11,366 nucleotides of DNA from Candidatus Omnitrophota bacterium (GCA_016192545.1 JACPTX010000051.1:1-11366); one strand, 5' to 3'. Shown: positions 1 through 11,366, numbered from the stretch's first letter. Notes: generated from the letters alone by a model not told the origin. Numbers and translations are program-made.

Positions 1-151
1 CGCACGACAACCCCCGCTGGGCGTGGATGTCGTTGGCGAACAGGGCGGCCGGGCCGCGCGCCTCGCCCTCCATCTGGCGGTGGCACTCGACGCAGCTGTT
101 CGATGGCGGCTCAGCCCTCGCCAGGCCGGGCGCCAGCGCCAGGCTGGCCAT
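1..151 (-). CDS. c-type cytochrome, 5' part only. Starts at ATG 151 and runs off the left window edge. Begins with a signal-peptide-like N-terminus, then CVECH, then a ...[12 protein letters not shown] segment (paired-CXXCH style). Likely the cytochrome c partner of the Rieske/cytochrome b complex.
   Basis: Minus-strand translation from ATG(151) reads [50 protein letters not shown] with no stop before position 1. It lies 14 nt downstream of the cytochrome b stop. The ORF track does not list it because its stop lies outside the window. Confidence 0.55.
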
Positions 152-165
152 GAGACTGAGGCGTG

Positions 166-1186
166 TTAATGCGCGTGCGGTGTCACCCATGCGGCGTACC
201 CTGTCATCCCGAGGATATACGAGACTGCGGCGATCCCGGCCGCCCACACCACCCACGAGGCCCTGCCCTTCCGGGCGGGCCGGTCCAGCCACGGCACCAG
301 CACGAGCACGGCACCGGCCGCCCCTGTGAGCCCCACCGCGATCAACTCGCCCTCGATGCCGAACACATGACCCGGAAACAGCTTCAGCGTCTGGAACATC
401 CAGAGGAAGTACCACTCGGGCTGGATCCCGACCGGCGTCGGCGCGAAGGGATCCGCCTTCGTGCCACGCGACCACGTCGCGCAGCAGGAAGTTGGGGAAA
501 AAAGGCCTGGACCGGTCGTCCGTCACCGAGAGGGGCTTGCTCATCCCCTGGAGCTGAATCATCACGAGATGGACCGCCAGGAGGGCGAGGAGCCCGGCCG
601 GCAGCACCGCGATATGGAACCAGAAAAATCTCGTGAGCGTGACGTCCCCGACGTCGCTGCCGCCGCGAAGAATCATCTGCATGACCGGCCCCACGACGGG
701 CACGACCCCGGCGATCTCCGTGCCCACCTTCGTCGCAAAGAACGCCAGGGTGTTCCACGGCAGGAGATAGCCGGTGAAGCCGAATCCCAGCAAGAGGAAG
801 AAGAGGAGCACCCCGGTGACCCAGGTGAGCTCGCGCGGCGGGCGGTACGCCTTTAGGAAAAACGTGCTGGCCAGGTGCACCATGGCGCAGAGGATCACGA
901 GGTTCGCCGCCCACGCGTGGACGCTCCGGATGAGCCATCCGAACTCGACCTTCGTCATGATGAAGCGGATGGACTCGAACGCCTCCTGCGCGGAGGGACG
1001 GTAATACAACAGGAGCAGGAGACCGCTGGCGAGCTGAATGCCGATGAGCACGAGGGTCATCCCGCCCCAGTAGTACCAGACGCTGTGGCGGTGGAGGGGG
1101 ACGGTCTTGTGGGTGGCCAGCTCAGCCAACCCGCCGAACTGGTAGCGCTCGCGGAGGAAGGCGCGCAGCCGTTCGATGAGGGCCAT
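166..1186 (-). pseudogene. petB/qcrB-like: Cytochrome b of a bc/b6f-type complex, b6-like with a fused subunit-IV-like C-terminus. The reading frame is interrupted around 455-466 and a roughly 20-aa segment (helix E) appears to be missing. This is either a genuine pseudogene or an assembly/sequencing error.
   Basis: From ATG 1186 the frame reads MALIERL...[24 protein letters not shown] (two His 14 residues apart, helix B)...[15 protein letters not shown]...GYLLPWN...[47 protein letters not shown] (two His 15 residues apart, helix D)...[15 protein letters not shown]. This is a strong cytochrome b6 signature. The protein then continues only in the +1 frame (ORF 166..399 and its upstream extension): [30 protein letters not shown] plus two more hydrophobic helices, i.e. 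the subunit IV / cytochrome b C-terminus with a PEWY motif. Between DVVAW and ADPF there are only about 4 codons, where homologues have a roughly 25-30 aa transmembrane helix. Confidence 0.7.
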
Positions 1187-1191
1187 CGGCC

Positions 1192-1659
1192 TCAGGCGGG
1201 TTTGGAGACGATGATCTCCTCACCCCGCACGTTCACCTGGAAGGCCTCCAGGGGCCGCGGGGGCGGACCGGAGATGACCTGGCCGTTGAGGTCGAACTTG
1301 CCGTTGTGGCACGCGCACCAGATGACGCTGACCTGAGGGTCGTACTGGACGGTGCAGTTGAGGTGGGTGCACACGGCAGAAAACGCTTTGAGCTCGCCTT
1401 GGGGCGTATGGATGAGAATCCCGGGACGGTTGCCGAATCGAAAGACCTTTGCGCTGTTTGTCGCCACTTCCCCGATCTGAGCGGCCACGACGTTTGACAC
1501 TGACGATTCCGCGCCGCGAGGGGGGTAGAGATACCGCACGATGGGATAGAGCGCGGCGCCGAGGAACGCGAGGACGCCTCCCTTGAGCAGGAACCGCAAG
1601 AAGGCTCGCCGGCTAATCGGCTGCGCTGGACACATCAGACGCGTTGCGCCACGCTGCAT
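1192..1659 (-). CDS. petC/qcrA-like: Rieske [2Fe-2S] iron-sulfur subunit of the cytochrome bc complex, Tat-dependent. Alternative starts are GTG 1689 and ATG 1635.
   Basis: Rieske box I CTHLNC and box II CACHNG. There is a twin-arginine motif SRRAFLRF followed by a hydrophobic anchor. GAGGG lies 8 nt upstream of ATG 1659. The stop is 5 nt before the cytochrome b ATG. Confidence 0.9.
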
Positions 1660-1716
1660 CCGGCCTGCCCTCGAGCGCCCGGTGGACACTCATCGTCGAC
1701 CATCATACCATAATGA

Positions 1717-2244
1717 TTACCAGAGCTTGGCGGCTTCTTCCTCAAGACCGGCATAGAGCTCCTGGTAGCGGTCCGGGTATTGCTGTTGAAACTCTTCAAG
1801 CAGGCGCTCCCGGAACGCCTCGAACTCCTCCCGCCGGTCAAGCTTGCGCACCTGGGAGTCGTGGACGAGGAACTCCCAGAGCTGCCTGGCCTCCGAGCCG
1901 TTGATCTGGCTGCCGGGTTTGTGCCACATCACCCTGACGTAGTGCTCCCAGAACGCGGGACTGGCCCATTGGGAATTGACGGCTCGAGCCAGGGTATGGC
2001 ACCGGGAGCACCTCCGCGCGAACAGGGCATACGAGCGCTGCATCTGCGGCGGATAGCCGGACACGTCAATCTCATCCGGACCTAGGTCGTTGGCGTACGG
2101 CCGCTTCGCGGCTTCCTGGATCTGCTCCTGCGTCCGCTGTTCGTCCGGCGACGGCTCTTGGGCGCCGAGGGGCGGCACCCCCCACGCCGTCAGCGCGATC
2201 AGCAGGGGCGCCGCCAGCCACCGGCGCATGCCTCGCCGCGGCAT
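1717..2244 (-). CDS. Monohaem c-type cytochrome, secreted, with an acidic coiled C-terminus. It occupies the ActE-like position at the end of the ACIII/Qrc-like module.
   Basis: Single CSRCH motif. N-terminus MPRRGMRRWLAAPLLIALTAWG resembles a signal peptide. ATG 2244 overlaps the upstream stop (TAATG). The ORF track start at 2256 is a GTG. Confidence 0.75.
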   Translation of the reverse strand: MPRRGMRRWLAAPLLIALTAWGVPPLGAQEPSPDEQRTQEQIQEAAKRPYANDLGPDEIDVSGYPPQMQRSYALFARRCSRCHTLARAVNSQWASPAFWEHYVRVMWHKPGSQINGSEARQLWEFLVHDSQVRKLDRREEFEAFRERLLEEFQQQYPDRYQELYAGLEEEAAKLW

Positions 2245-3608
2245 TAGCGAGACCACTCCCAGGCCGTCTTCGTTGCAGGCGCCGGCGGCGCCTCGCCCTC
2301 AGGCAGATAGGTTGTGAGCCGCTCCACGGTGTCCTGGATTCCCCGCTGCCGGCCCTCCTCCACCTCCCAGACCGAAATGATCGGAAACACCTTGGCGAAG
2401 AGCGTGTACAGCAGGAGGAACGCCGCAAAGGCCCCCGCGGTGATCGCTCCCTCCACCCACGTCGGCGTATAGCCGCTGGTGGGAACGGGCAGCCGCGGGT
2501 TGATGAGCGAAGGCACGACGATGATGAACCGCTCCAGCCACATGCCGACGAGGATGGTGCTCGAGGCCACCACCATGCCCGGAATCGTGCGGGTGGCGGG
2601 CAGGCTCAGGATGACGAGGGGAATGGCGAAACAACAGGCCGCCATGGTCCAGAAGTAGGGCGCGTAGGGCCCGGAGAGCTTGGCCCAGAAAATCGTCATC
2701 TCATCCGGCTCATGTCCGTAGAATGTGGTGAGGTACTCCGCAAAGGTGAAGTAGGTCCACAGGCACGTCATCACCAGCAGGAGGAGGCCGAGGTTCTTGA
2801 AGTGGACCGGCTTGAGGTACGCCTCCAGCCGGTAGGTCTTGCGCAGCACCGCCATCGCGAGGATCAGGGCGGCGATCCCGGAGTAGATCGCGCCCACGAC
2901 AAAATACGGGCCGAAAATGGTGCTATGCCACATCGGCTGAACGGTCATGGCGAAGACCCAGGAGACGACCGTGTGGACCGAGACGGCGATGGGGATGACG
3001 ACGACCGCCAGCACGGCGATCGCCAGCTCCAGCCGGTGCCGCTCGTTCGGCGTGCCCCGCCAGCCCAGCGCCAGGGCACCGTAGAACCATCGCCGCCGCG
3101 GCAGCCGGTCTCTGAGGAGCGCGATGTCCGGAATGAGCGGCAGGTAGAGATAGCAGATGCTGGCTGTCACATAGGTGGTGATGCTCGTGACGTCCCACAG
3201 CAGGGGGGAGCGGAAATTGGGATGCAGGAAGACGTTGAGCGCCCGGTCCGGGCGCCCGAGATCCATGATGATGTTGCCCGCCCCGATAAACAGGACCAGG
3301 ACGGTGATCGTCTCCGCCATGCGCGTGATCGGCCTCCGCCATTCGGCCTGGCAGAGGCGCAGGATCGCCGAGATCAGCGTCCCGGCATGGCTGATGCCGA
3401 TGAAGAATACGAAGTTGGTGATGTAGATGCCCCAGAACACCGGGCGGTTCAGGCCGGTCACGACGAGGCCGTCGCGAAGCTGGTGCACCCAGGCATAGGC
3501 CGCGAAGCCGATGACGGCCAGCAGGAATCCGACGAGCAGGAAAAATGGCCTCGAAAACCGGGTCATCGAGGCGATCAGGTCGGCTTCGAGGTCCCGCGGC
3601 TGCGCCAT
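2244..3608 (-). CDS. NrfD/PsrC-family integral membrane quinone-interacting subunit. About 10 hydrophobic segments, ActC/QrcD/DsrP-like in size.
   Basis: 454 aa and highly hydrophobic, with a WGIYITNFVFFIGISHAG-type NrfD-family motif. It starts 2 nt after the FeS-subunit stop. Confidence 0.85.
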   Translation of the reverse strand: MAQPRDLEADLIASMTRFSRPFFLLVGFLLAVIGFAAYAWVHQLRDGLVVTGLNRPVFWGIYITNFVFFIGISHAGTLISAILRLCQAEWRRPITRMAETITVLVLFIGAGNIIMDLGRPDRALNVFLHPNFRSPLLWDVTSITTYVTASICYLYLPLIPDIALLRDRLPRRRWFYGALALGWRGTPNERHRLELAIAVLAVVVIPIAVSVHTVVSWVFAMTVQPMWHSTIFGPYFVVGAIYSGIAALILAMAVLRKTYRLEAYLKPVHFKNLGLLLLVMTCLWTYFTFAEYLTTFYGHEPDEMTIFWAKLSGPYAPYFWTMAACCFAIPLVILSLPATRTIPGMVVASSTILVGMWLERFIIVVPSLINPRLPVPTSGYTPTWVEGAITAGAFAAFLLLYTLFAKVFPIISVWEVEEGRQRGIQDTVERLTTYLPEGEAPPAPATKTAWEWSR

Positions 3609-3610
3609 CG

Positions 3611-4429
3611 TCAGGCCTCAGCGAGGTAGGTCACTTTGGGTCGCGTCCCCAACTCTTCCTGCAACAGCGAGCGGCGGGGGCTCCGCCCCAGCTGCGACGC
3701 CGCGCTGTTCGGCTCGTCGAGATCGCCGAAGGCAATGGCTCGGGCGGGGCAGACCTGCATGCACGCCGGCACATAGTCCCCCTCGCGCAGGGTCCGTCCG
3801 TCGCTGGCGGCCTGCTCCTTCGCCCGGATGAGCCGGTGGTGGCAAAAGGTGCATTTCTCGGTGACGCCCTTGGGGCGCACCGACACATCGGGGTTGTGCA
3901 TGGCCTCCATCGGCGCGGGCCAGGTGGGCGTCGACCAGTTGAAGAACTTGCAGGTGTAGGGACAGGCGTTGACGCAGTAGCGGCAGCCGATGCACCGGGG
4001 ATAGATTTGGGCGACCAACCCTTCCGGATTTTTGTACGTGGCAAAGACCGGGCAGACCGGGGTGCAGGGCGGCCGATCGCAGTGCTGGCACGGGACGGGC
4101 ATGAGGCGCTGGCGCACCGCCGGGTATTCCCCCTCTGTTGAGGGGAGCAGCGTCATCCACTCGATGATGCGCCCGGCCCGATGCGCCTCGGGACTCGGCA
4201 GCGGCTGGTTGTTCTCCGCCCAGCAGGCGACCACGCAGGCCTGGCAGCCCGTGCACCGATCCAGGTCGATCACCATCCCCCACCGGTGCGGGCGAGCCGC
4301 GACGGCTTGCCCAGGCGCCTGACGGACCGACGCCTCGGCCTTCGACAGACGTCGAAAGAGCGCGAGCGACGCCGCGGCCGCCAGGGCCCGGGCGAGGAAC
4401 GAGCGTCGAGAATAGGCTAGGCCTTCCAT
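3611..4429 (-). CDS. Four-cluster [4Fe-4S] ferredoxin-type electron-transfer subunit (PsrB/NrfC/ActB2/QrcC-like) with its own Tat signal.
   Basis: RRSFLARALAAAASLALF Tat motif. Four Cys clusters: CTGCQACVVAC; CQHCDRPPCTPVCP; CIGCRYCVNACP; CTFCHH...CMQVCP. Its ATG overlaps the upstream gene by 13 nt (ATGGAAGGCCTAG). Confidence 0.9.
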   Translation of the reverse strand: MEGLAYSRRSFLARALAAAASLALFRRLSKAEASVRQAPGQAVAARPHRWGMVIDLDRCTGCQACVVACWAENNQPLPSPEAHRAGRIIEWMTLLPSTEGEYPAVRQRLMPVPCQHCDRPPCTPVCPVFATYKNPEGLVAQIYPRCIGCRYCVNACPYTCKFFNWSTPTWPAPMEAMHNPDVSVRPKGVTEKCTFCHHRLIRAKEQAASDGRTLREGDYVPACMQVCPARAIAFGDLDEPNSAASQLGRSPRRSLLQEELGTRPKVTYLAEA

Positions 4430-6687
4430 ACCTTCACCAGCGTCCCTTGCCAGAACGGCTGCCCGGTTTGCTCATCCAGCCGGCGGCCAACCAGATGAGC
4501 CGGATTGGCGCCGATGTCCTTGGCCCAGCGGCCGCACGCCAGATGGCCAAGCCCAAGGGGCATGGCGACCACGCCTGGCACCACGCCTTCACACCAGCGG
4601 GCCGTGGCCTCCACCTTCCCATGAAGCGATGCGATCCAGATCCGCTCGCCATCGCGGATGCCGAACTGCCGGGCCGTGCTCGGGTGGAGTTCCGCCCACG
4701 TCTCCCACGCCTCGGAGAGGTGGCGGCCGGCGATCTGCTGCAGGAACGGCAGATGCGCGCCGGTCCCCGCAAGGAAGGCCAGGGGCGAGTAGAGATAGAG
4801 CTGTAGGGGAGCGTGCTGCGCCTCGCCACCACCGGCCTCCGCCGAAGCCGTTTCGAGGAGGGTCGTCATGGCGTCCGGGAACAACTCCAGCCGTCCGGAC
4901 GGCGTGCGAAACTCAGCCCACGGGGCGTCTTCCGCGGGCCAGACCGCTCCCCCGCCCAACCGTAGACGCTCCAGCAGCCCCTCGCCGCTCGTTGGAGGCT
5001 TGTCCGCCTCTCGCATCGTCTCGCTCGACCACCTGATCGGCGGAAGCGGCGTCCCGGACTTCGTCTCGTAGAGCGCCTGCGCCCGCTCCTTGACGAGCGG
5101 CTCCACCGAATCCCAGGGGAACGCGCCCGCCACGGGCGGGCCGAGCGCGCGGGCCAGCTGGAGGATCACCTCCTCCAACGCCCGGGCTGCTCCGCGCGGC
5201 GGCACCACCGGAGGGGTGATGTTCACCGCCGCGCGGCCGTCGCTGGTGCAGACGGACGCGAACTGCCACTGCTCCAGCGCGGTCGCCAGCGGCAGCACGA
5301 GGTCCGCGTGGAGCGCCGTCTCATCAAGCATCGACGCGAAGCTCACGATGAACGGCATCCGGCCCAAGGCCTCGACCCACCGCGAGGGCGATGGGCTGAT
5401 GAAGCAGGGGTTGGCCTGGTGGACGCAGAGGATCTCGATGGGCGCCTCGGTCCCATCGAGAAGGTGTTCGGGCAGCCGTTCGGCGTGCGCCAGCCGCTGG
5501 GCCTGCAGGCCCCGCTCGGCGACGTCATCGCGCGCCGGCTCGGGAGGCAGCGAGAGCCCCGGCGGCTCCCAGCGCCGCAGGACGCCGCCGCGCGCATCGA
5601 GGTTCCCCACCAATCCGTTCAGGCTCATGACGGCCCATTGGGTCATCAGATCCGCCCGCGCTCCCACGGCGAGGCCCCGTCTCAGGCCGAACTCCTTCGC
5701 CAGGCGCTGGATGGTTTCCGGAGGAACGCCCGTCCGCTCCGCCACCGCCTCCGGATCGGCGCGGGAGGCGACGAAGCGCGCGAAGGGCTCCAATCCGACG
5801 CTGTTCTGCGCCAGCTGATCATGGATGAGCCGCTCGCGGATCAGCACGTGCGCGATCCCCAGGGCGAGCCACCCGTCCTGCCCAGGCCGAATGGGGATCC
5901 ACTCGTCACTCTTCGCCGCCGTCATGGAGAGCCGCGGTTCCACCTGGACGATGCGCGCCCGCCGATCGCTGCGGCCCTGGCGAAGCCACCCGTATGCGCG
6001 CGAGGCTTCCACCGGCGAGGGATAGGCCTGAAGCCAGTCAAGGCCGAAGGAGAGGAGCAGGTTGGCCTGCGCGAGATCGTAGAGCGGCTCGCCCTCCCGA
6101 TCCACCATCAGTCGAAATGCCTCGGCTGGCAGCTCTCCGGCCGGCGGGCTCAAGACAAGATCGTGCGGGGATCCCCACGCGCGCAGGAAACGCTGGATGA
6201 GCTGCCGGCCGAGACTCCGGGAGGGACCGCTCAGCCAAGCCAAGCGCTGCGGCTCGCCGCGCTGGCGAAGCCCGCGAAGGCGGTCCACGAGCAACGGCAT
6301 CGCCTCCTCCCACGCCACCGGCTCGAAGCGGCCCTCACCCCGCTCGCCCACCCGCCGCAGCGGCTGGAGGAGGCGATCCGGATGGTAGAGCTCGGTGAGG
6401 CCTGCGGCACCTCGCGGACAGAGGGCGCCCTGATTGACCGGATGGGCGGGAAGCCCCTCCAGCTTCACGACTCGGCCTTGCACCACGCGCGCCGCGACGC
6501 CGCAGCCGGCCGGACACAGTTGACAGACGGAAGGCGCCCACTGCTCCGGCGCCCTCGGCAACAGCTCTTCGTCCGCGGCGGGAGGCGGCAAGCCCAGCAG
6601 CCGATACTTGATGAGATCCTCCACGGCCCCTGCGGTGGTCGCGATGAGGCCGGTCAGTCCAAGAAAGGCGCGCCGGGTCAGTTCCAT
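4417..6687 (-). CDS. Molybdopterin-oxidoreductase-family large subunit (PsrA/PhsA-size, ActB1/QrcB-like). Tat-exported, with an N-terminal FS0 [4Fe-4S] motif.
   Basis: MELTRRAFLGL Tat signal. C-x2-C-x3-C-x27-C-PRG (CQLCPAGC...CPRG). VAWEEAM and C-terminal GIRDGERIWIAS...GVVAMPLG motifs are typical of the family. GGAG lies 10 nt upstream of the ATG. There is no Cys between residue 91 and about 420, so the usual Cys Mo ligand is absent. Confidence 0.85.
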   Translation of the reverse strand: MELTRRAFLGLTGLIATTAGAVEDLIKYRLLGLPPPAADEELLPRAPEQWAPSVCQLCPAGCGVAARVVQGRVVKLEGLPAHPVNQGALCPRGAAGLTELYHPDRLLQPLRRVGERGEGRFEPVAWEEAMPLLVDRLRGLRQRGEPQRLAWLSGPSRSLGRQLIQRFLRAWGSPHDLVLSPPAGELPAEAFRLMVDREGEPLYDLAQANLLLSFGLDWLQAYPSPVEASRAYGWLRQGRSDRRARIVQVEPRLSMTAAKSDEWIPIRPGQDGWLALGIAHVLIRERLIHDQLAQNSVGLEPFARFVASRADPEAVAERTGVPPETIQRLAKEFGLRRGLAVGARADLMTQWAVMSLNGLVGNLDARGGVLRRWEPPGLSLPPEPARDDVAERGLQAQRLAHAERLPEHLLDGTEAPIEILCVHQANPCFISPSPSRWVEALGRMPFIVSFASMLDETALHADLVLPLATALEQWQFASVCTSDGRAAVNITPPVVPPRGAARALEEVILQLARALGPPVAGAFPWDSVEPLVKERAQALYETKSGTPLPPIRWSSETMREADKPPTSGEGLLERLRLGGGAVWPAEDAPWAEFRTPSGRLELFPDAMTTLLETASAEAGGGEAQHAPLQLYLYSPLAFLAGTGAHLPFLQQIAGRHLSEAWETWAELHPSTARQFGIRDGERIWIASLHGKVEATARWCEGVVPGVVAMPLGLGHLACGRWAKDIGANPAHLVGRRLDEQTGQPFWQGTLVKVWKA

Positions 6688-6920
6688 CGACGTGGTGGCT
6701 CCGGGGCGCCGCCGGCCTGCTGGGCCAGGAAGCGGTCAATGGCCTGGATGACCAGCCGGCTCTTTGGCAGCGATTCACCCCGCTCCCACCGGTTCAGGCT
6801 GGAGTACGCGACCCCCAATTGATGGGCGCAATACTCCTGCGACCACCCCCTGGCTCGACGGAGGGCCGTCACCTGTTTAATGGCGCGTTTCAGCCGCGTC
6901 GTCTGCGTATCCATCTGCAT
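6678..6920 (-). CDS. XRE-family helix-turn-helix transcriptional regulator (80 aa).
   Basis: GWSQEYCAHQLGVAYSSLNRWERGESLPKSRLVIQAIDRFL is a classic HTH_3 pattern. Its stop overlaps the ATG of the downstream Mo-family subunit (ATGGAACTGA). Confidence 0.7.
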   Translation of the reverse strand: MQMDTQTTRLKRAIKQVTALRRARGWSQEYCAHQLGVAYSSLNRWERGESLPKSRLVIQAIDRFLAQQAGGAPEPPRRWN

Positions 6921-6997
6921 AGCATAAGATACAACACATGGGCATCAGAAAAACATGACATACGTCATACAGGATGGCGGCGCGCCCGCGCACGCGG
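6921..6997 (-). promoter_or_regulatory. AT-rich intergenic region carrying the inverted repeat ATGAC-N4-GTCAT. Candidate promoter/operator for the XRE-led operon.
   Basis: This is the only AT-rich stretch in the window. It sits between the pentahaem cytochrome stop and the XRE start. 6955..6968 reads atgacatacgtcat, and ACATG occurs twice as a direct repeat. Confidence 0.3.
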
Positions 6998-7522
6998 CTA
7001 CCGATGGCAGGCGAGGCAGTCGGTGGTGACCTGCCGCTGCCGATGGCACTCCAGGCAGCGGTCCATCGTGAGGGGAGCGGCCTGGCGGACGACGGGGGCC
7101 GTCACTTGGCTCAGGTCCCCGTGGCAGAGGGCGCAGTCAAGTTGCGCGAGCGTCACGTGGCGCCGGTGCGAGAAATACGCGTGCCCGGGCACCCGGTAGA
7201 CCTGCTTCCAGGGGATCTCCTCGCCGCGCGCGGCCACCTGCTCCAGCTGCGGCCCGACTCGGTCCAGCACCGGCGTCTGGACGCCGACCGCCGCGTGGCA
7301 GTCCACGCAGTCCGTGACCGCCGGGACGCCGGCGAAGGTCTCCGTTTCGGCCTGCGCATGGCAGGTCACGCAGGTGAGCCCCGCCGCGAGATGCTTCTGG
7401 TGGTTGAACGGGATGAGCGGCTGGACCGCCTGAGGGCGCTGGCTGGCGCGCTCGCGCATCGCGTAGAACGTCGTGCCCGCGAGGACCGCCAGGGCGACCA
7501 GCAGCAGGAGGCGCTCCCTCAT
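6998..7522 (-). CDS. Membrane-anchored pentahaem c-type cytochrome built from two c3/c7-like units. Candidates are ActA/QrcA-like or a CymA-like quinol-side partner.
   Basis: N-terminal hydrophobic helix MRERLLLLVALAVLAGTTFYA. Five CXXCH motifs (CVTCH, CVDCH, CALCH, CLECH, CLACH). Two F-x-H-x2-H motifs (FNHQKH, FSHRRH) precede haem sites. Confidence 0.85.
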   Translation of the reverse strand: MRERLLLLVALAVLAGTTFYAMRERASQRPQAVQPLIPFNHQKHLAAGLTCVTCHAQAETETFAGVPAVTDCVDCHAAVGVQTPVLDRVGPQLEQVAARGEEIPWKQVYRVPGHAYFSHRRHVTLAQLDCALCHGDLSQVTAPVVRQAAPLTMDRCLECHRQRQVTTDCLACHR

Positions 7523-7543
7523 GTCGTCGGCCGAGAGGAGGCG

Positions 7544-8428
7544 CTAGGACGTGGTGGCGTGAGGTGGAGGGGGGCTCTTCGGAACACCTTGCGCAAGCGC
7601 CGTGAGGCCGGTCATCGCTCCCAGGTTCATGGTCTCCACGGCACTGGAAGGCACGATGATGATGGTGGAGCTCTGACGCATGCCCTCCAGCAGGATGTTC
7701 ATGGCGCGCAGGTGCAGGGCCGTCGGGTTCTCCGCGTACGCGCGGGAGGCTTCTTCGAAGCTGCGGGCCACCTGGCGCTCCGAGTCTCCCAGGATGATCC
7801 GCGCCTGCCGTTCGCGCTCGGCCTGGGCCTGCATCGACATCGCGTTCTGGAGCGCCTCGGGGATCTTCACGTCCCGGATCTCGACGGACAGGGCCTTGAT
7901 GCCCCACGGCTCGGTGCGGTGGTCGATCGTCTCGCACAGCAGCACGTCAATCTTGTCCCTTCCGATGAGCATCTCCGCCAGGTCCGTCTTGCCGATCACG
8001 TCCCGCAGGGCGGTTTGCGAGGCCCAGGCGATCGCCTCGCGGTAATTCTCGACTTCCAGCGCCGCTTTGATCGAGTCCACCACCCGCCAGAACAGCACGG
8101 CGTCCACGTCAACCGGCACGCTGTCCTTCGTCAAGGTCTGCTCGGCGGCGAATGGTGTGGTGATGGTCCGCAGGTCGATCCAGTGGGAGATGGCGTCGAG
8201 GATCGGCACGATCAGGAAGAACCCGGGCCCCTTGAGCCGGTGGAACCTTCCCAACCGCAAGACCACCGCCTTCTGCCACTGCTGGGCCACGCGGATCGCC
8301 GGGCTCAGCAGCAGCCCGACGGCGACCATGCCCACCGTCACCCACGGATTCCCGGTCGCCGCCCCTCCGACGAAGCCTACGGCGACGAGTGCGAGAAAGA
8401 GCAGGATCGCCAATGGGTGCGTCCCCAT
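7544..8428 (-). CDS. SPFH/band-7 (stomatin-prohibitin-flotillin-HflK/C) family membrane protein.
   Basis: N-terminal transmembrane segment followed by QQWQKAVVLRLGRFHRLKGPGFFLIVPILD...IDLRT and a long Ala/Glu/Arg-rich coiled region. AAGGAGG lies 9 nt upstream of the ATG. Confidence 0.85.
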   Translation of the reverse strand: MGTHPLAILLFLALVAVGFVGGAATGNPWVTVGMVAVGLLLSPAIRVAQQWQKAVVLRLGRFHRLKGPGFFLIVPILDAISHWIDLRTITTPFAAEQTLTKDSVPVDVDAVLFWRVVDSIKAALEVENYREAIAWASQTALRDVIGKTDLAEMLIGRDKIDVLLCETIDHRTEPWGIKALSVEIRDVKIPEALQNAMSMQAQAERERQARIILGDSERQVARSFEEASRAYAENPTALHLRAMNILLEGMRQSSTIIIVPSSAVETMNLGAMTGLTALAQGVPKSPPPPHATTS

Positions 8429-8446
8429 GATCGCTTGCCTCCTTCG

Positions 8447-10522
8447 TCAGAATTGCTGAGTCACCTCAAGCCAGATCACGTGGGCGGTATAGTCGCCGGA
8501 CTCGACGTTCTCGTTGGGGTTGTAGGTGTAGAGCGCGTAGTCAAGCCCGAGCGACGTCTGGTCACTCGGCGACCATGCGATTCCTGTCGTGAGGTCAAGC
8601 CGGTGGAAATCCGCCCCGAACGGCATCCCGGTGTCGGCGAAGTCATTGAAGTTCTGCGCCCGGGAATAGAGGAGCGAGCTGGTCCACGTCAGGTTCGGCT
8701 TGGGCGCGTAGTCCGCGCTGAAGAGCCAGCTCGAAACGTCGGCGTTGAACGTCGGGATGTTGGAGGGCGTCGAGGCATACCGGGCCGGCGTCGTGGTCGC
8801 GGCGTTCTGCCGGGAAAACGACGCCGTCGTCACCAGTTCTTTCAGCGGCTGCAGCGTCACGTCGTAGGTGTAGATGTGGGAGCGCGTGCCCGTCTTCACG
8901 GTGTCCTGCGATTCCGCCCGCGTGCTGTAATCGTCGTCGCGGTACTGGTAGCGGACGGAGGACCGGAACCACCGGCACGGCCGGAGGGTAAAGCGCGTGA
9001 CGAACTCGTTGGTGTGGATGTTCTGCTCGTCAATGAACGCCGACCGGGCCCCGCTCGCCACGGTCTCCCGCTGGTCGTCGTAGTCGTTGTTGTTGACCCG
9101 CCGGCGCACGTGCGCCGTGAGATCCAGGAACGGCCAGGGGCTGCTGCGCCCGCCGAGCGTCCAGACGCCCCGGCGCACGTCCGTGACCGTCTCGCGCATG
9201 AAGACCTCGGTGGCCACCGCGTCATTCCCCGTGTCCGGGCCGTCGAGGCTCTGGCGGTCCTCCCGCATGAGCACCCGGGACTGCTCGAATTCCAGCTCCG
9301 TATAGAGCGCCGTCCGGGGAAGGCCGGTGAAGCGCAACGAGAACCCCTCCCCCCACCGCGCCGCCTTCGTGTCCGTCAGGTTCGCCTCCGTGTGATCCAC
9401 CACCAGGTCGAAGGCCTCCGGGGACGTGACGTATTCCGAGTAGGCGGGATAGGTGGAGTTGCTTTGCCGTTTGATGACCTCGGACTTCAGCTTGGTGCCG
9501 AAGGACAGCGATTCCCCCAGCTGCGTCGTCAGGTTCCCCACCCAGGTGTGCGAGTCATAGTCGTTGTCTGCCCGCGAGTCGAACTTGTTCTCGGCGCGCG
9601 AAAAGTTCGTGACGACGCCGGCGGCGTTCATCTCGATCAGGGTTTCATACTCGCGGCTGTCCAGGTGCGCGAAGTGGTAGCCCGTCGACAGGAACACCTT
9701 CTCGTTCAGGAAATGGCGCTCGGCCCCCAGGGTCGTGGTCATGAGGGTTGACTCCGGCGCCTGGTCCTGGGTGCGCATCAGCGACTCCGAGGCGGTGGCG
9801 TTCGTCGAGCGGTACACTTCATGCCGGACGGTCTCCGAGCGCGCGAACTCCCACCGCTGCTCCCCGCGCAAGGCGAATCCCGCGAGCTCGTGGTTGGCCG
9901 TGAGCGCGAAGGCATCCACAATCTCGTCAATGTCCTGCCACGAGGGGCCGATCTTCCTGGCTTCCCCGGCCTCGGTCACGGACGTCCACGTCAGGCGGGA
10001 TTTGGCCCCGTCCTTGAATTCCCGCTCATAGGCGAACGACAATTCCGGCCACCCTTCCAGCGTCAGGCCGGTTTCCACACCCAACTTCCCGATGTCCAGC
10101 GCCAGGTCTTCATCGGCATCAATAGTCTGGAAGGTCGAAAAACGCCGATGGGTCCCGCCATTGCCGTCGAAGTATTTGCGGAACTCGGAATACTCCAGAT
10201 TGAAGAAGCCGAGCGTATCCTTCTTGAGTTCCACATCCGTTCCGAAGTCATTCTGGCTTGGGAACGCATGCCCTTCAGCGGAGAGGAACGTGCCATCAGG
10301 CAGGGTGTGCCGGAACAGGAACTCCTTCACCCCGCCTGCGTAGCCCTCTTTCATCCAGTGGTGGGCGCGGAATTTTTCGACGTCGCCGTCCACGAAGGCA
10401 TAGCGCATCGGCACCAGCGCCACGGCGACTTCCGGGTCCGCGGCCTCCACCCCACCAGGCCAGCACCAAAACCCGCCGGCCGCCACCATGGCCAGGACCG
10501 TCACGCGTCGCATGGCTCGCAT
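8447..10522 (-). CDS. Outer-membrane beta-barrel protein of 691 aa. Its context suggests an MtrB/PioB/MtoB-like porin of a porin-cytochrome conduit.
   Basis: Signal peptide MRAMRRVTVLAMVAAGGFWCWPGGVEA|AD. Polar/aromatic alternating beta-strand patterns throughout. Terminal ...YTAHVIWLEVTQQF ends in Phe. GGGAGG lies 7 nt upstream of the ATG. The gene sits immediately (15 nt) downstream of a multihaem cytochrome c gene. Confidence 0.6.
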   Translation of the reverse strand: MRAMRRVTVLAMVAAGGFWCWPGGVEAADPEVAVALVPMRYAFVDGDVEKFRAHHWMKEGYAGGVKEFLFRHTLPDGTFLSAEGHAFPSQNDFGTDVELKKDTLGFFNLEYSEFRKYFDGNGGTHRRFSTFQTIDADEDLALDIGKLGVETGLTLEGWPELSFAYEREFKDGAKSRLTWTSVTEAGEARKIGPSWQDIDEIVDAFALTANHELAGFALRGEQRWEFARSETVRHEVYRSTNATASESLMRTQDQAPESTLMTTTLGAERHFLNEKVFLSTGYHFAHLDSREYETLIEMNAAGVVTNFSRAENKFDSRADNDYDSHTWVGNLTTQLGESLSFGTKLKSEVIKRQSNSTYPAYSEYVTSPEAFDLVVDHTEANLTDTKAARWGEGFSLRFTGLPRTALYTELEFEQSRVLMREDRQSLDGPDTGNDAVATEVFMRETVTDVRRGVWTLGGRSSPWPFLDLTAHVRRRVNNNDYDDQRETVASGARSAFIDEQNIHTNEFVTRFTLRPCRWFRSSVRYQYRDDDYSTRAESQDTVKTGTRSHIYTYDVTLQPLKELVTTASFSRQNAATTTPARYASTPSNIPTFNADVSSWLFSADYAPKPNLTWTSSLLYSRAQNFNDFADTGMPFGADFHRLDLTTGIAWSPSDQTSLGLDYALYTYNPNENVESGDYTAHVIWLEVTQQF

Positions 10523-10537
10523 TGTCCGCCTCCCGGG

Positions 10538-11366
10538 TTAATAGCGCAGGTGCTCGTCAAAGTTCGACCCGTGCGGGGCCGTATGACAGCCCGCGCTGAA
10601 ACACGTCCCCTGATTCAGCCGGCCCGAATGGCTCGACCCCCCGATCGTCGGGAAGTTGGTCTGGGTATGGCAGCGCAGGCAGAGGTTGACATCCCGCACC
10701 AGCAGCATCTTTTCGTGAATCGAGCCGTGGACCTTATGGCAGGTCGTGCAACCCTCCCGCAGCGCCTCGTGTTCCCACACGAACGGCCCGCGCTGCTCCT
10801 TGTGGCATCGGAAGCACGCCTCATTGATGTCTTTCAGCGACGTGGCGGACCACGGCCGGACGTCCGGGGCGTGGGCGTTGTGGCAATCCGCGCAACTCAT
10901 CTTGCCCTCAAGCAGCGGGTGGTGGTAGGGCAATCGAAACTCCGCTTTCTTATCTAAATGGCAAGCGAAGCAGGTGCTGGGGTCTTTGCGCGGATTAATG
11001 ATGCCGCCCACCCCGCGGCCTCCCCCGGCCTCGACGTGCAGGCTGCCGGGCCCGTGGCACATCTCACAGCCCTGCCCTTTGACGTTCTCGTCGGTAATCC
11101 TGATCCTGGCGTGGGTCGACTGCTGGAACTCTTGGTACTTCTTTTCGTGGCATGCCCGGCAGGTTTCCGTGCCGACGTATTCGGCTTCCGGTGGCTCGAC
11201 CGGCTTGGCGGACTCCTCGGCGGACTCGGCCCATGCCTCAGGCGCGACTAACCGACTGAGATACGCTTGCAACTGGCCTGCGGCATCGGGTGACTGCCGC
11301 GAAGAGTGCGGAGGGCTTTCTTCGACGTCGTTCTTCTTGATCGGCGCGACACCCGCCGGCACAGAC
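10538..11366 (-). CDS. Multihaem c-type cytochrome with at least 8 haems in the window. The N-terminus lies beyond the right window edge. MtrA/PioA/OmaB-like periplasmic partner of the downstream beta-barrel.
   Basis: CRACH, CEMCH, CFACH, CADCH, CFRCH, CTTCH, CLRCH plus CFSAGCH (CX4CH), spaced about 25-30 aa apart with interleaved His. The ORF is open to the window edge; the listed 'M' at 11362 is a GTG. Confidence 0.9.
   Translation of the reverse strand, partial: SVPAGVAPIKKNDVEESPPHSSRQSPDAAGQLQAYLSRLVAPEAWAESAEESAKPVEPPEAEYVGTETCRACHEKKYQEFQQSTHARIRITDENVKGQGCEMCHGPGSLHVEAGGGRGVGGIINPRKDPSTCFACHLDKKAEFRLPYHHPLLEGKMSCADCHNAHAPDVRPWSATSLKDINEACFRCHKEQRGPFVWEHEALREGCTTCHKVHGSIHEKMLLVRDVNLCLRCHTQTNFPTIGGSSHSGRLNQGTCFSAGCHTAPHGSNFDEHLRY

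Follow-up and report, generated by a model that had tools for sequence, protein, structure and literature searches.

The window analysed here, a stretch of 11,366 bp from the metagenome-assembled genome of an uncultured Candidatus Omnitrophota bacterium, carries all of its genes on the minus strand (Table 1). At its high-coordinate end, the 3′ part of a multi-haem cytochrome c gene is followed by a gene for a large, predicted outer-membrane β-barrel. The cytochrome ORF is open at the window edge and closes with a TAA stop at 10540-10538, and the spacing of 15 nt that the initial annotation gave for the two genes is borne out. The GGAGG motif (10533-10529) lies 6 nt, rather than the 7 nt first given, ahead of the barrel's ATG at 10522. 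Past the barrel gene, an SPFH/Band 7 gene starts after 18 nt and is kept, among relatives, in locus L001 only. No terminator-like or promoter-like sites were found within 6500-11366.

Table 1. Features of the window, listed in the direction of transcription
Feature	Position	Strand	Basis
MtrA-like multi-haem cytochrome c gene, 3′ part, 274 codons	10538..>11366	-	ORF and motifs
Intergenic spacer, 15 nt, with GGAGG ribosome-binding site	10523..10537	-	Sequence reading
691-aa outer-membrane β-barrel, predicted remote MtrB homologue, unplugged	8447..10522	-	ORF, AlphaFold, Foldseek, profiles
SPFH/Band 7 (stomatin/HflK-like) membrane protein	7544..8428	-	PF01145, E 1e-33
Qrc/alternative-complex-III (ACIII)-like module, putative inner-membrane partner	1717..7522	-	Pfam/NCBIfam matches
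Pentahaem cytochrome (Qrc/ACIII-like module)	6998..7522	-	
Molybdopterin-like subunit, TAT signal	4417..6687	-	
FeS subunit (Qrc/ACIII-like module)	3611..4429	-	
NrfD-type membrane subunit	2244..3608	-	
Monohaem cytochrome c (Qrc/ACIII-like module)	1717..2256	-	
Rieske protein, putative inner-membrane partner	1192..1689	-	Pfam/NCBIfam
b6-type cytochrome b, split over two reading frames	~1195..184	-	tblastn with L001 gene

The cytochrome lacks its signal peptide and a probable N-terminal domain with a ninth haem because the contig ends within the gene and, since the window is the entire contig, this N-terminus is beyond reach in the present assembly; the ORF is indeed open at the window edge, as had been recognised from the start. 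The remaining fragment possesses seven CxxCH motifs and one Cx4CH motif (CFSAGCH), and the earlier count of at least eight haems thus holds if the latter site binds haem. CFSAGCH pairs with MtrA's tenth haem motif in alignment and, together with eight further histidines outside the motifs, is at least 90% conserved among 46 cytochrome relatives; all eight haem attachment motifs likewise reach at least 90%. The fragment's best NCBIfam matches were the DmsE/MtrA decahaem family (TIGR03508; E 3.7e-47, 160.9 bits, despite the 5′ truncation) and the GSU2203 decahaem family, with a score of 160 bits for NF041028. The curated TIGR03508 cut-off of 192.2 bits was reached neither by the fragment nor by the full-length relatives from L002 (170.4 bits) and L001 (153.6 bits). 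Using phmmer, the full-length L002 cytochrome matched MtrA of PDB 6R2Q (6r2q_A) at E 4.8e-34, in an alignment that covers all eight haem motifs and pairs them one-for-one. Ten CxxCH motifs are not present, the conserved core being seven CxxCH and one Cx4CH, and no OmaB-named family appeared among the Pfam/NCBIfam matches. Judged by these profile matches and alignments, the window cytochrome is a clear MtrA homologue. Its closest relatives (L001, L004, L005, L007 and L042) have a long, nonahaem form with eight CxxCH and one Cx4CH, in which the ninth haem sits in an N-terminal extension, the region that is cut off in the window. By eye, most N-termini among the cytochrome relatives are signal-peptide-like or lipobox-like (lipoprotein-type).

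The barrel gene agrees with its first description as encoding a signal-peptide-bearing protein of 691 aa that ends in Phe: the N-terminus, MRAMRRVTVLAMVAAGGFWCWPGGVEA/AD, resembles a signal peptide of ~27 aa, and the C-terminus reads ...VTQQF. NCBI annotates a 688-aa version that starts at the second Met, and the 691-aa protein therefore has no exact database record. More than 130 homologues were found at 39-65% identity; the family comprises 894 clusters at 50% identity in a larger library, and one Verrucomicrobia fusion member, used as query, drew matches to over 1,500 proteins (E<=1e-10). Because of these many homologues and a confident AlphaFold model (pLDDT 89.8), the ORF is taken to be a real gene and not an artefact of high GC content. 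An overlapping plus-strand ORF (6974..9751, 925 aa), rich in Arg, Gly and Pro, was rejected as antisense noise. The window's barrel protein itself carries no haem motif. In public records, members of the family are labelled “hypothetical” or “cytochrome c family protein”.

Direct searches place the barrel in no known family. A Pfam scan of the window protein returned nothing at E<=0.1, nor at E<=10, and an NCBIfam scan returned nothing at E<=1; the search against PF11854 and TIGR03509 that the initial annotation had proposed was consequently negative for this protein, and no match to an unrelated outer-membrane protein family emerged either. Against PDB sequences, phmmer with the window barrel gave noise only, and profiles built from 53 and 146 family members, run with default HMMER filters, retrieved no barrel, MtrB included. 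In the opposite direction, a Shewanella MtrB HMM run on the barrel family produced weak matches, the best at 17 bits. Just one of 53 barrel relatives, P0077, passed PF11854 (29.6 bits vs a threshold of 23), with its residues 37-202 aligned to profile positions 2-172.

A relation to MtrB emerges from structure and from profile-profile comparison. In the AlphaFold model, β-strand extends over residues 31-690 with alternating long and short loops and no plug domain, and the strand count is ~26-28, possibly 28; the plugged barrel of under about 16 strands that would have spoken against a conduit is thus not what the model depicts. Foldseek returned MtrB as the best PDB match (E 1.9e-10, TM 0.61/0.65), at 7-12% identity in the structural alignments. 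By hhalign, a 223-sequence alignment of the barrel family matched 116 Shewanella MtrB sequences with a probability of 97.5% (E 7.9e-12), colinearly across 507-604 columns, and reversed or permuted control alignments gave <=1.2%. The broader alignment was needed for this signal, a 53-sequence alignment against one MtrB sequence being insufficient (1.2%, not significant). When single sequences were compared with the family profile, those of MtrB scored 89-95.5% (17-36 bits), vs 0.3-2.9% (-2 to 2 bits) for FhuA, FepA, LptD and BamA. A TonB-dependent receptor was also considered and rejected, given no Plug/TonB_dep_Rec match in Pfam, strand from residue 31 onwards, TM scores of 0.28-0.46 against 22-strand receptors, and 0.3% for FhuA and FepA. 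Taken together, profiles and model indicate that barrel and MtrB are remote homologues of similar size, the barrel being unplugged and its profile homology specific to MtrB. The MtrAB-type reading of the initial annotation is therefore supported in both halves, the cytochrome by its match to MtrA and the barrel by Foldseek and profile-profile matches to MtrB.

The two genes travel together. In every related locus with upstream DNA (~42 Omnitrophota-type loci and 2 Verrucomicrobia loci), the cytochrome lies directly upstream of the barrel on the same strand, and the pair stays constant while the flanking genes vary. Across these loci the paired cytochromes are 47-81% identical, and for the barrels identity drops to 27% at the lowest. 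The Verrucomicrobia cytochromes, at 261-275 aa, are octahaem (seven CxxCH and one Cx4CH) and 47% identical to that of the window. Their barrels carry a fused N-terminal monohaem PSCyt1 domain, which provides independent evidence of an electron-transfer role for the barrel family; the extra monohaem domain is thus found on the barrel in Verrucomicrobia and on the cytochrome in the window's lineage. Over both phyla, the pairing of cytochrome and barrel is obligate.

Downstream of the SPFH/Band 7 gene, the window encodes a module resembling Qrc, a quinone reductase supplied by periplasmic cytochromes, and ACIII. Its matches (QrcA 80, QrcB 302, QrcC 271 and DsrP 136 bits) all lie under the curated cut-offs. 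It is by adjacency alone that the module can be tied, presumptively, to the conduit, and the arrangement was seen only in the window and L001. Rieske and cytochrome b genes are more recurrent companions: in L047 and L048 both immediately follow the barrel, in L050 they come one gene later, and in L004, L005 and L007 a Rieske homologue is the next gene past the barrel. Further upstream, candidate Cyc2-type fused cytochrome-porins are encoded two to three genes away in L001 and L048, and NirK and NnrS upstream of the pair in L002 and L049. In addition, L047 encodes a fusion of multi-haem and cytochrome b561 parts that resembles CbcL/MtoC and, straight after its barrel, L050 encodes a 400-aa cytochrome with a match to MtrC/MtrF domain II/IV (39 bits, threshold 30). 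In the window and its closest relatives, no gene next to the pair encodes a surface cytochrome of the MtrC/OmcA type. Nor is an OmcB-type third component adjacent in the window, where the SPFH/Band 7 gene follows the barrel and the upstream side of the cytochrome is off the contig.

From homology, modelling and the conserved pairing, the two proteins probably form a porin-cytochrome conduit across the outer membrane, of the kind known from MtrAB, MtoAB and PioAB. The cytochrome would be exported to the periplasm and its core loaded with eight haems, with a ninth presumably carried on a flexible N-terminal arm in the window's lineage. It would then be housed in the barrel's lumen (26-28 strands), where its bis-His haems, set close to one another, would form a chain through the outer membrane; with eight core haems instead of ten, this chain would be shorter than in MtrA. 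At its inner end, the conduit may exchange electrons with multi-haem proteins of the periplasm or inner membrane encoded next to it, and through these with the quinone pool, the putative partners being the Qrc/ACIII-like and Rieske/cytochrome b complexes. At the outer end, the last haem would meet a redox partner outside the cell, for example Fe(II)/Fe(III), Mn, humic quinones or a neighbouring cell.

As to direction, we tentatively favour uptake, with electrons drawn from Fe(II) or a comparable donor outside the cell in the manner of MtoAB and PioAB, while holding that preference at somewhat less than even confidence. We lean this way because no surface cytochrome is adjacent, again as in MtoAB and PioAB, because Rieske/cytochrome b genes recur beside the pair, because a Qrc-like module adjoins it, and because candidate Cyc2-type and NirK/NnrS genes lie near it in the loci named above. 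The cues come from gene context and are mixed, however, and the CbcL-like quinol oxidase of L047 and the MtrC-domain cytochrome directly 3′ of the barrel in L050 point outward in some lineages. The same hardware could then discharge electrons, with quinol oxidised by the Rieske/cytochrome b, Qrc/ACIII-like or CbcL-like complexes and Fe(III), Mn(IV), humics or a partner cell as acceptor, which is a possibility to be taken seriously without being probable. Anaerobic respiration through MtrCAB, the best-known use of MtrAB, runs this way. Likewise, transfer to humics was proposed for the octahaem/porin clusters of Verrucomicrobia (He et al. 2017, PMC5615132), and three CbcL-type and three ImcH homologues have been counted in Omnitrophica genomes (PMC6295460). 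Against outward transfer, the potentials of Rieske proteins are, from general bioenergetics, usually too high for feeding the reduction of Fe(III) oxides; the lack of an adjacent surface cytochrome in the window and its closest relatives also speaks against it, and the Qrc-type module, NirK/NnrS and Cyc2-like neighbours suit uptake better.

Two further explanations dispense with the conduit or assign it another task. The barrel might be an ordinary porin for diffusion, or a transporter of some substrate, that happens to neighbour a soluble periplasmic cytochrome, with no haem chain through the membrane. This is very unlikely, given a pairing that is obligate over two phyla and many genomic contexts, a profile homology to MtrB not shared with other large barrels, and the fusion of the Verrucomicrobia barrel to a cytochrome domain; moreover, an unplugged barrel of 26-28 strands would presumably be very leaky unless occupied. 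Most improbable is a DmsEFAB-like system, in which the conduit would serve the molybdopterin enzyme encoded three genes downstream, placed at or beyond the outer membrane and acting on a specific soluble substrate: the cytochrome's top NCBIfam family is named for DmsE, and the TAT-signal molybdopterin and FeS subunits follow in the same apparent operon with no terminator-like site between, but these subunits score far higher as QrcB and QrcC than against the DmsA family (130 bits), the accompanying pentahaem and NrfD-type integral membrane subunits are those of an inner-membrane Qrc/ACIII architecture, and the linkage is confined to the window and L001, the pair occurring elsewhere without any molybdoenzyme.

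If the MtrAB-type conduit is accepted, it is tempting to read the whole window jointly. A single transcription unit would hard-wire the conduit to a Qrc/ACIII-like quinone reductase and to a Rieske/cytochrome b complex with multi-haem subunits, and the tethered N-terminal haem domain of the cytochrome would act as a periplasmic shuttle, completing a full chain from the outside to the quinone pool. We offer this as a speculative and, on balance, rather doubtful proposal. Were it true, Omnitrophota could oxidise Fe(II), Mn(II) or minerals, perhaps with nitrite reduction, or alternatively draw electrons directly from partner cells. The phylum is best known for tiny, host-dependent cells, and we know of no demonstration in it of either metabolism, external-donor oxidation or electron uptake from partner cells.

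Porin-cytochrome conduits enable bacteria to respire or feed on solids and drive the turnover of iron, manganese and humics in aquifers and sediments. Because the MtrB/PioB models of Pfam and NCBIfam miss the window barrel, tools relying on them, such as METABOLIC and FeGenie, may under-count conduits, and groundwater and bog metagenomes may be affected. In our literature searches, no paper connected Omnitrophota with MtrAB/MtoAB or porin-cytochromes. The initial annotation's view that no conduit has been characterised in this lineage stands in the experimental sense; as a prediction, the octahaem/porin design was already known, having been put forward for the sister phylum Verrucomicrobia in 2017 (PMC5615132). 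What the profile comparisons indicate is that the family present across Omnitrophota and Verrucomicrobia represents a divergent MtrAB branch with eight haems, rather than a system of separate origin, which would tie the “novel” cluster of Verrucomicrobia to one whose structure has been solved.

One of the closest known systems is MtrA-MtrB of Shewanella (MtrCAB, PDB 6R2Q), with the same order of cytochrome and barrel, homology in both halves, and an unplugged barrel of 695 aa vs 691 aa in the window. The window cytochrome differs from MtrA in having a core of eight haems, not ten, with the equivalents of one internal MtrA haem pair missing, and in ending on a Cx4CH motif. Its barrel falls under every curated MtrB/PioB threshold and has perhaps 28 strands, vs 26 in MtrB; unlike in MtrCAB, no MtrC/OmcA partner gene is adjacent, and the host belongs to Omnitrophota, not to Proteobacteria. 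MtoAB of Sideroxydans and Gallionella and PioAB of Rhodopseudomonas palustris are similar in having two components and no surface cytochrome, with a cytochrome bc-type complex and Cyc2-like genes nearby. MtoA and PioA are decahaem, unlike the window cytochrome, and MtoB and PioB belong to PF11854/TIGR03509, of whose thresholds the window barrel falls short, a comparison made via these family models. PioA likewise bears an N-terminal extension (PMC6831781).

In Verrucomicrobia from freshwater and soil, a “novel porin-multihaem cytochrome c complex” was described in which a porin of at least 20 strands lies beside a periplasmic cytochrome whose eight haem sites are conserved (He et al. 2017, mSphere, PMC5615132). 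Likened by description, it fits the window family and its Verrucomicrobia relatives. Its authors held the system to be non-homologous to Mtr, whereas the present tests show the window family to be Mtr-homologous. In Geobacter, the Pcc system (OmbB-OmaB-OmcB) similarly pairs an octahaem periplasmic cytochrome with a porin-like protein (PMC4245776). Pcc has an adjacent dodecahaem outer-membrane cytochrome, whereas the window pair is without an adjacent third cytochrome. The Pcc porin is also far smaller, at ~20 strands. Pcc has been described as not homologous to Mtr (PMC6344600), whereas the window pair is Mtr-related. Finally, Cyc2, a fused monohaem cytochrome-porin, also transfers electrons at the outer membrane by combining a barrel with haem, and the Verrucomicrobia members of the window family are cytochrome-barrel fusions as well. 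Cyc2 packs a small barrel and one haem into a single protein of ~400-450 aa.

All real genes of the 11,366-bp contig, which belongs to a 'Candidatus Omnitrophica' MAG from groundwater and is covered in full by the window, are carried on the minus strand. The initial annotation's order of a multi-haem cytochrome gene followed by a barrel gene is borne out, with a 15-nt spacer separating the cytochrome stop from a 691-aa ORF that has a signal-peptide-like N-terminus and a terminal Phe. The strong GGAGG SD sequence reported ahead of the barrel ATG is indeed present in this spacer, although it lies 6 nt from the start codon rather than 7. Four successive genes, for the cytochrome, the barrel, the SPFH protein and the pentahaem cytochrome, are 15-21 nt apart, and the intervals between them hold nothing resembling a terminator, which would fit their transcription as a single unit. 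A 925-aa plus-strand ORF (6974..9751) that overlaps the pentahaem, SPFH and barrel genes in antisense is rich in Arg, Gly, Pro and Val; it was rejected as spurious, long ORFs of this kind being typical of a genome with 65% GC.

The proposal of at least eight haems holds in number if all eight attachment sites of the cytochrome fragment bind haem; seven are CxxCH motifs, but the eighth is Cx4CH (CFSAGCH). In NCBIfam the fragment scores highest with two decahaem families, DmsE/MtrA (TIGR03508; 161 bits, E 4e-47) and GSU2203 (160 bits), in each case under cut-off, and a full-length relative likewise falls short of the TIGR03508 cut-off (170 versus 192 bits). The full-length, 264-aa cytochrome of the related locus L002, 76% identical to that of the window, matches Shewanella MtrA (PDB 6R2Q, chain A) with an E-value of 4.8e-34, and the haem motifs of the two align one to one: haems 1-2 and 5-10 (or 1-4 and 7-10) of MtrA are present, and one internal pair is absent from the window-family cytochrome. 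When 46 relatives are compared, conservation of at least 90% is seen for the eight attachment motifs and for eight further His residues, as would be expected if eight haems were bis-His ligated. Most relatives are 250-310 aa in length and, by visual inspection, start with what resembles a signal peptide or lipoprotein-type signal. The five closest (from L001, L004, L005, L007 and L042) are 380-424 aa, and their N-terminal part consists of a signal peptide, an additional monohaem domain, and a linker that is acidic and rich in Pro. The window fragment starts within this linker, so that some 120 residues, and with them a ninth haem, have probably been lost beyond the contig end.

The barrel itself has no match in Pfam, NCBIfam, or PDB sequences, and barrel-family profiles run against PDB sequences with default filters were also without a match. 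Only one of 53 barrel relatives (P0077) passes the Pfam MtrB_PioB model, at 29.6 bits against a threshold of 23 and colinear at the N-terminus. A 223-member profile of the window family was compared with the true 6R2Q chain B sequence and 120 Shewanella MtrB proteins. With HMMER, the median score of real MtrB was 21.7 bits and the highest 36.1; reversed sequences stood at -1.4 (maximum 9.2), and shuffled ones reached at most 2.6 bits. With hhalign, the family matched MtrB at 97.5% probability (E 7.9e-12), colinear across 507-604 columns, and reversed or permuted alignments reached at most 1.2%. Against single sequences, the family profile gave 89-95.5% for MtrB and 0.3-2.9% for E. coli FhuA, FepA, LptD (26 strands, with about 26 in MtrB), and BamA. 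These scores, set against their controls, identify the barrel as a remote homologue of MtrB in particular, beyond the reach of the curated family models. Its earlier placement in the MtrB/PioB family is thereby upheld at the level of profile homology but not by the Pfam and NCBIfam models, and membership of an unrelated outer membrane protein family, such as that of LptD or BamA, is not favored.

The barrel family comprises 894 clusters at 50% identity (E<=1e-3). In species-representative genomes, scanning turned up 43 loci with the family, nearly all from Omnitrophota MAGs, some labelled Planctomycetales, with one labelled Syntrophales and one Actinomycetota. In every one of this set having upstream sequence, the gene immediately before the barrel, in the same orientation, encodes a cytochrome 48-81% identical to the window's, and barrel identity falls to 27% across loci that keep this cytochrome. 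Farther out in the family are proteins of about 800 aa, chiefly from Verrucomicrobia, in which a monohaem PSCyt1 ('Planctomycete cytochrome C') domain is fused N-terminally to an MtrB-like barrel; in public records they appear as 'mono/diheme cytochrome c family protein' or 'hypothetical'. Both of the Verrucomicrobia-type loci that were checked (L051 and L052) possess an octahaem lipoprotein cytochrome directly upstream, 47% identical to that of the window. The obligate two-gene module and the fusion of a cytochrome to the barrel together provide strong comparative evidence that the barrel partners the cytochrome in electron transfer.

The genes around the pair vary from locus to locus. In L047 and L048, the order is cytochrome, barrel, Rieske, and cytochrome b, with two multi-haem cytochromes next in line; L050 shares this set but has an additional cytochrome behind the barrel, which may serve its lineage as a surface partner. 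In the window, an SPFH protein and a Qrc/alternative-complex-III-like complex are inserted ahead of Rieske/cytochrome b, an arrangement otherwise seen only in L001, which is also the only locus to conserve the SPFH gene next to the barrel. The complex comprises a pentahaem cytochrome, TAT-signal molybdopterin-like and FeS subunits, an NrfD-type membrane subunit (DsrP scoring above QrcD), and a monohaem cytochrome; all subunits are below NCBIfam cut-offs, so the module matches no named complex exactly. The gap between its pentahaem and molybdopterin-like genes is just 4 nt in L001; in the window, it holds a putative 80-aa ORF (...WSQEYCAHQLGVAYSSLNRWERGE...) that resembles an Xre-type helix-turn-helix by eye. 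The L001 counterpart of the split cytochrome b is one 357-aa gene, and the split reflects either a frameshift or an error of assembly, or else a true division into b6 and subunit-IV-like parts. In L001, a 428-aa cytochrome comes after cytochrome b.

Upstream of the pair, L001 and L048 encode proteins of 408 and 409 aa that are 82% identical, with a signal peptide, the N-terminal motif IPAFARKYGVSCNVCH, and a C-terminal Phe. Neither has a significant Pfam match (DUF3649 is sub-threshold in L001, E 0.006), and they look like candidate Cyc2-type fused monohaem cytochrome-porins. In L002 and L049, both groundwater contigs, the pair may be connected with nitrite or NO metabolism, judging by the genes upstream of it (a copper nitrite reductase in L002, a Cu-oxidase-domain homologue and NnrS in L049); CarboxypepD_reg and Aq_1264_TM proteins are common to the two. 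Finally, Crp/FNR-type regulator genes lie a few kb or less upstream of the pair in L002, L047, and L048 (three of three), beside a hemerythrin gene in the first two, which hints at oxygen- or NO-responsive control.

Features of the window and of related loci (L numbers) and barrel-family proteins (P numbers)
Feature	Sequence	Coordinates	Strand	Remarks
Multi-haem cytochrome ORF	window	stop at 10540-10538	-	runs off contig end; read from sequence
Barrel ORF, 691 aa	window	10522..8447	-	15-nt spacer after cytochrome stop
SPFH/Band 7 (stomatin/HflK-like) gene	window	7544..8428	-	between barrel and pentahaem genes; spacers 18 and 21 nt
Qrc/alternative-complex-III-like hybrid module	window	1717..7522	-	sub-cut-off NCBIfam matches
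80-aa ORF (putative)	window	6678..6920	-	in 310-nt gap between pentahaem and molybdopterin-like genes
b6-type cytochrome b	window	184..1195	-	two frames: L001 homologue residues 1-241 in frame -2 (1195..464), 260-353 in frame -3 (465..184)
Start of further multi-haem cytochrome (...CVECH)	window	2..103	-	cut by contig end; homologous to 428-aa L001 cytochrome
Cyc2-like candidate	L001	6793..8019		2-3 genes upstream of pair
Cyc2-like candidate	L048	4809..6038		2-3 genes upstream of pair
Copper nitrite reductase	L002	6945..7961		upstream of pair; TIGR02376, 325 bits, above cut-off
Cu-oxidase-domain homologue and NnrS	L049	2369..6669		upstream of pair
Multi-haem and cytochrome b561 fusion	L047	14517..16454		cluster of pair; CbcL/MtoC-like inner-membrane quinol oxidase or quinone reductase
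400-aa multi-haem cytochrome	L050	10048..11250		directly after barrel; MtrC/MtrF domain II/IV match, 39 bits, threshold 30
PSCyt1-barrel fusions	P0202-P0261, P0382-P0496; L051; L052	L051 6001..8409; L052 6001..8457		large, mostly Verrucomicrobia branch

Both parts of the pair are homologous to MtrA and MtrB, the barrel is large and unplugged, and the pairing is obligate, which lends computational support to the conduit interpretation first offered; the pair very probably constitutes a porin-cytochrome conduit. By analogy with the MtrCAB structure, and with what is published on MtoAB/PioAB, the barrel lumen would house the eight-haem core, whose haems would form an insulated chain across the outer membrane. 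The neighboring multi-haem and quinone-linked complexes would serve the periplasmic end, and the outer end would face redox partners outside the cell. The additional monohaem domain, found on the cytochrome in the window's lineage and on the barrel in Verrucomicrobia, may, speculatively, be a periplasmic relay.

Within the conduit reading, we tentatively favor electron uptake of the MtoAB/PioAB type, given the lack of an adjacent MtrC-type cytochrome, the recurrence of Rieske/cytochrome b genes, the adjoining Qrc-like module, the Cyc2-like candidates, and the NirK and NnrS neighbors. Outward flow is somewhat less likely and would be in keeping with the CbcL-like gene of L047, the MtrC-type domain of the L050 cytochrome, and the humic-reduction hypothesis published for Verrucomicrobia (PMC5615132). 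A DmsEFAB-like arrangement, to which the molybdopterin-like and FeS subunits might point, is unlikely, since these are Qrc-type, are accompanied by NrfD and pentahaem subunits, and are absent from most loci. Finally, the chance proximity of an unrelated porin and a soluble cytochrome would sit poorly with the obligate pairing, the homology to MtrB specifically, and the cytochrome-barrel fusions.

Within the library searched, no paper ties Omnitrophota to MtrAB/MtoAB or porin-cytochromes; in one paper, Omnitrophica MAGs were flagged by FeGenie for iron cycling, and CbcL and ImcH homologues have been counted in Omnitrophica (PMC6295460). While a porin-cytochrome in an uncultured groundwater phylum would not surprise a specialist, the analysis contributes the finding that a PVC-wide barrel family is related to MtrAB and escapes the curated MtrB/PioB models. 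The size of this unannotated family, its strict architecture, and its Rieske/cytochrome b and Qrc-like wiring make it a worthwhile experimental target.

Taken together, we read the pair as an Omnitrophota conduit of the MtrAB type that has diverged and carries eight or nine haems. He et al. 2017 (PMC5615132) describe, in Verrucomicrobia MAGs and Opitutus terrae, a porin with 20 or more strands, termed 'novel', beside a periplasmic cytochrome with eight haem sites, judged non-homologous to Mtr or Omb and proposed to transfer electrons to humics; the description is repeated in He et al. 2019 (PMC6344600). The Verrucomicrobia branch of the barrel family agrees with that system by description only. 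Among solved systems the MtrAB of 6R2Q comes nearest, whereas in function the nearest analogues are MtoAB and PioAB.
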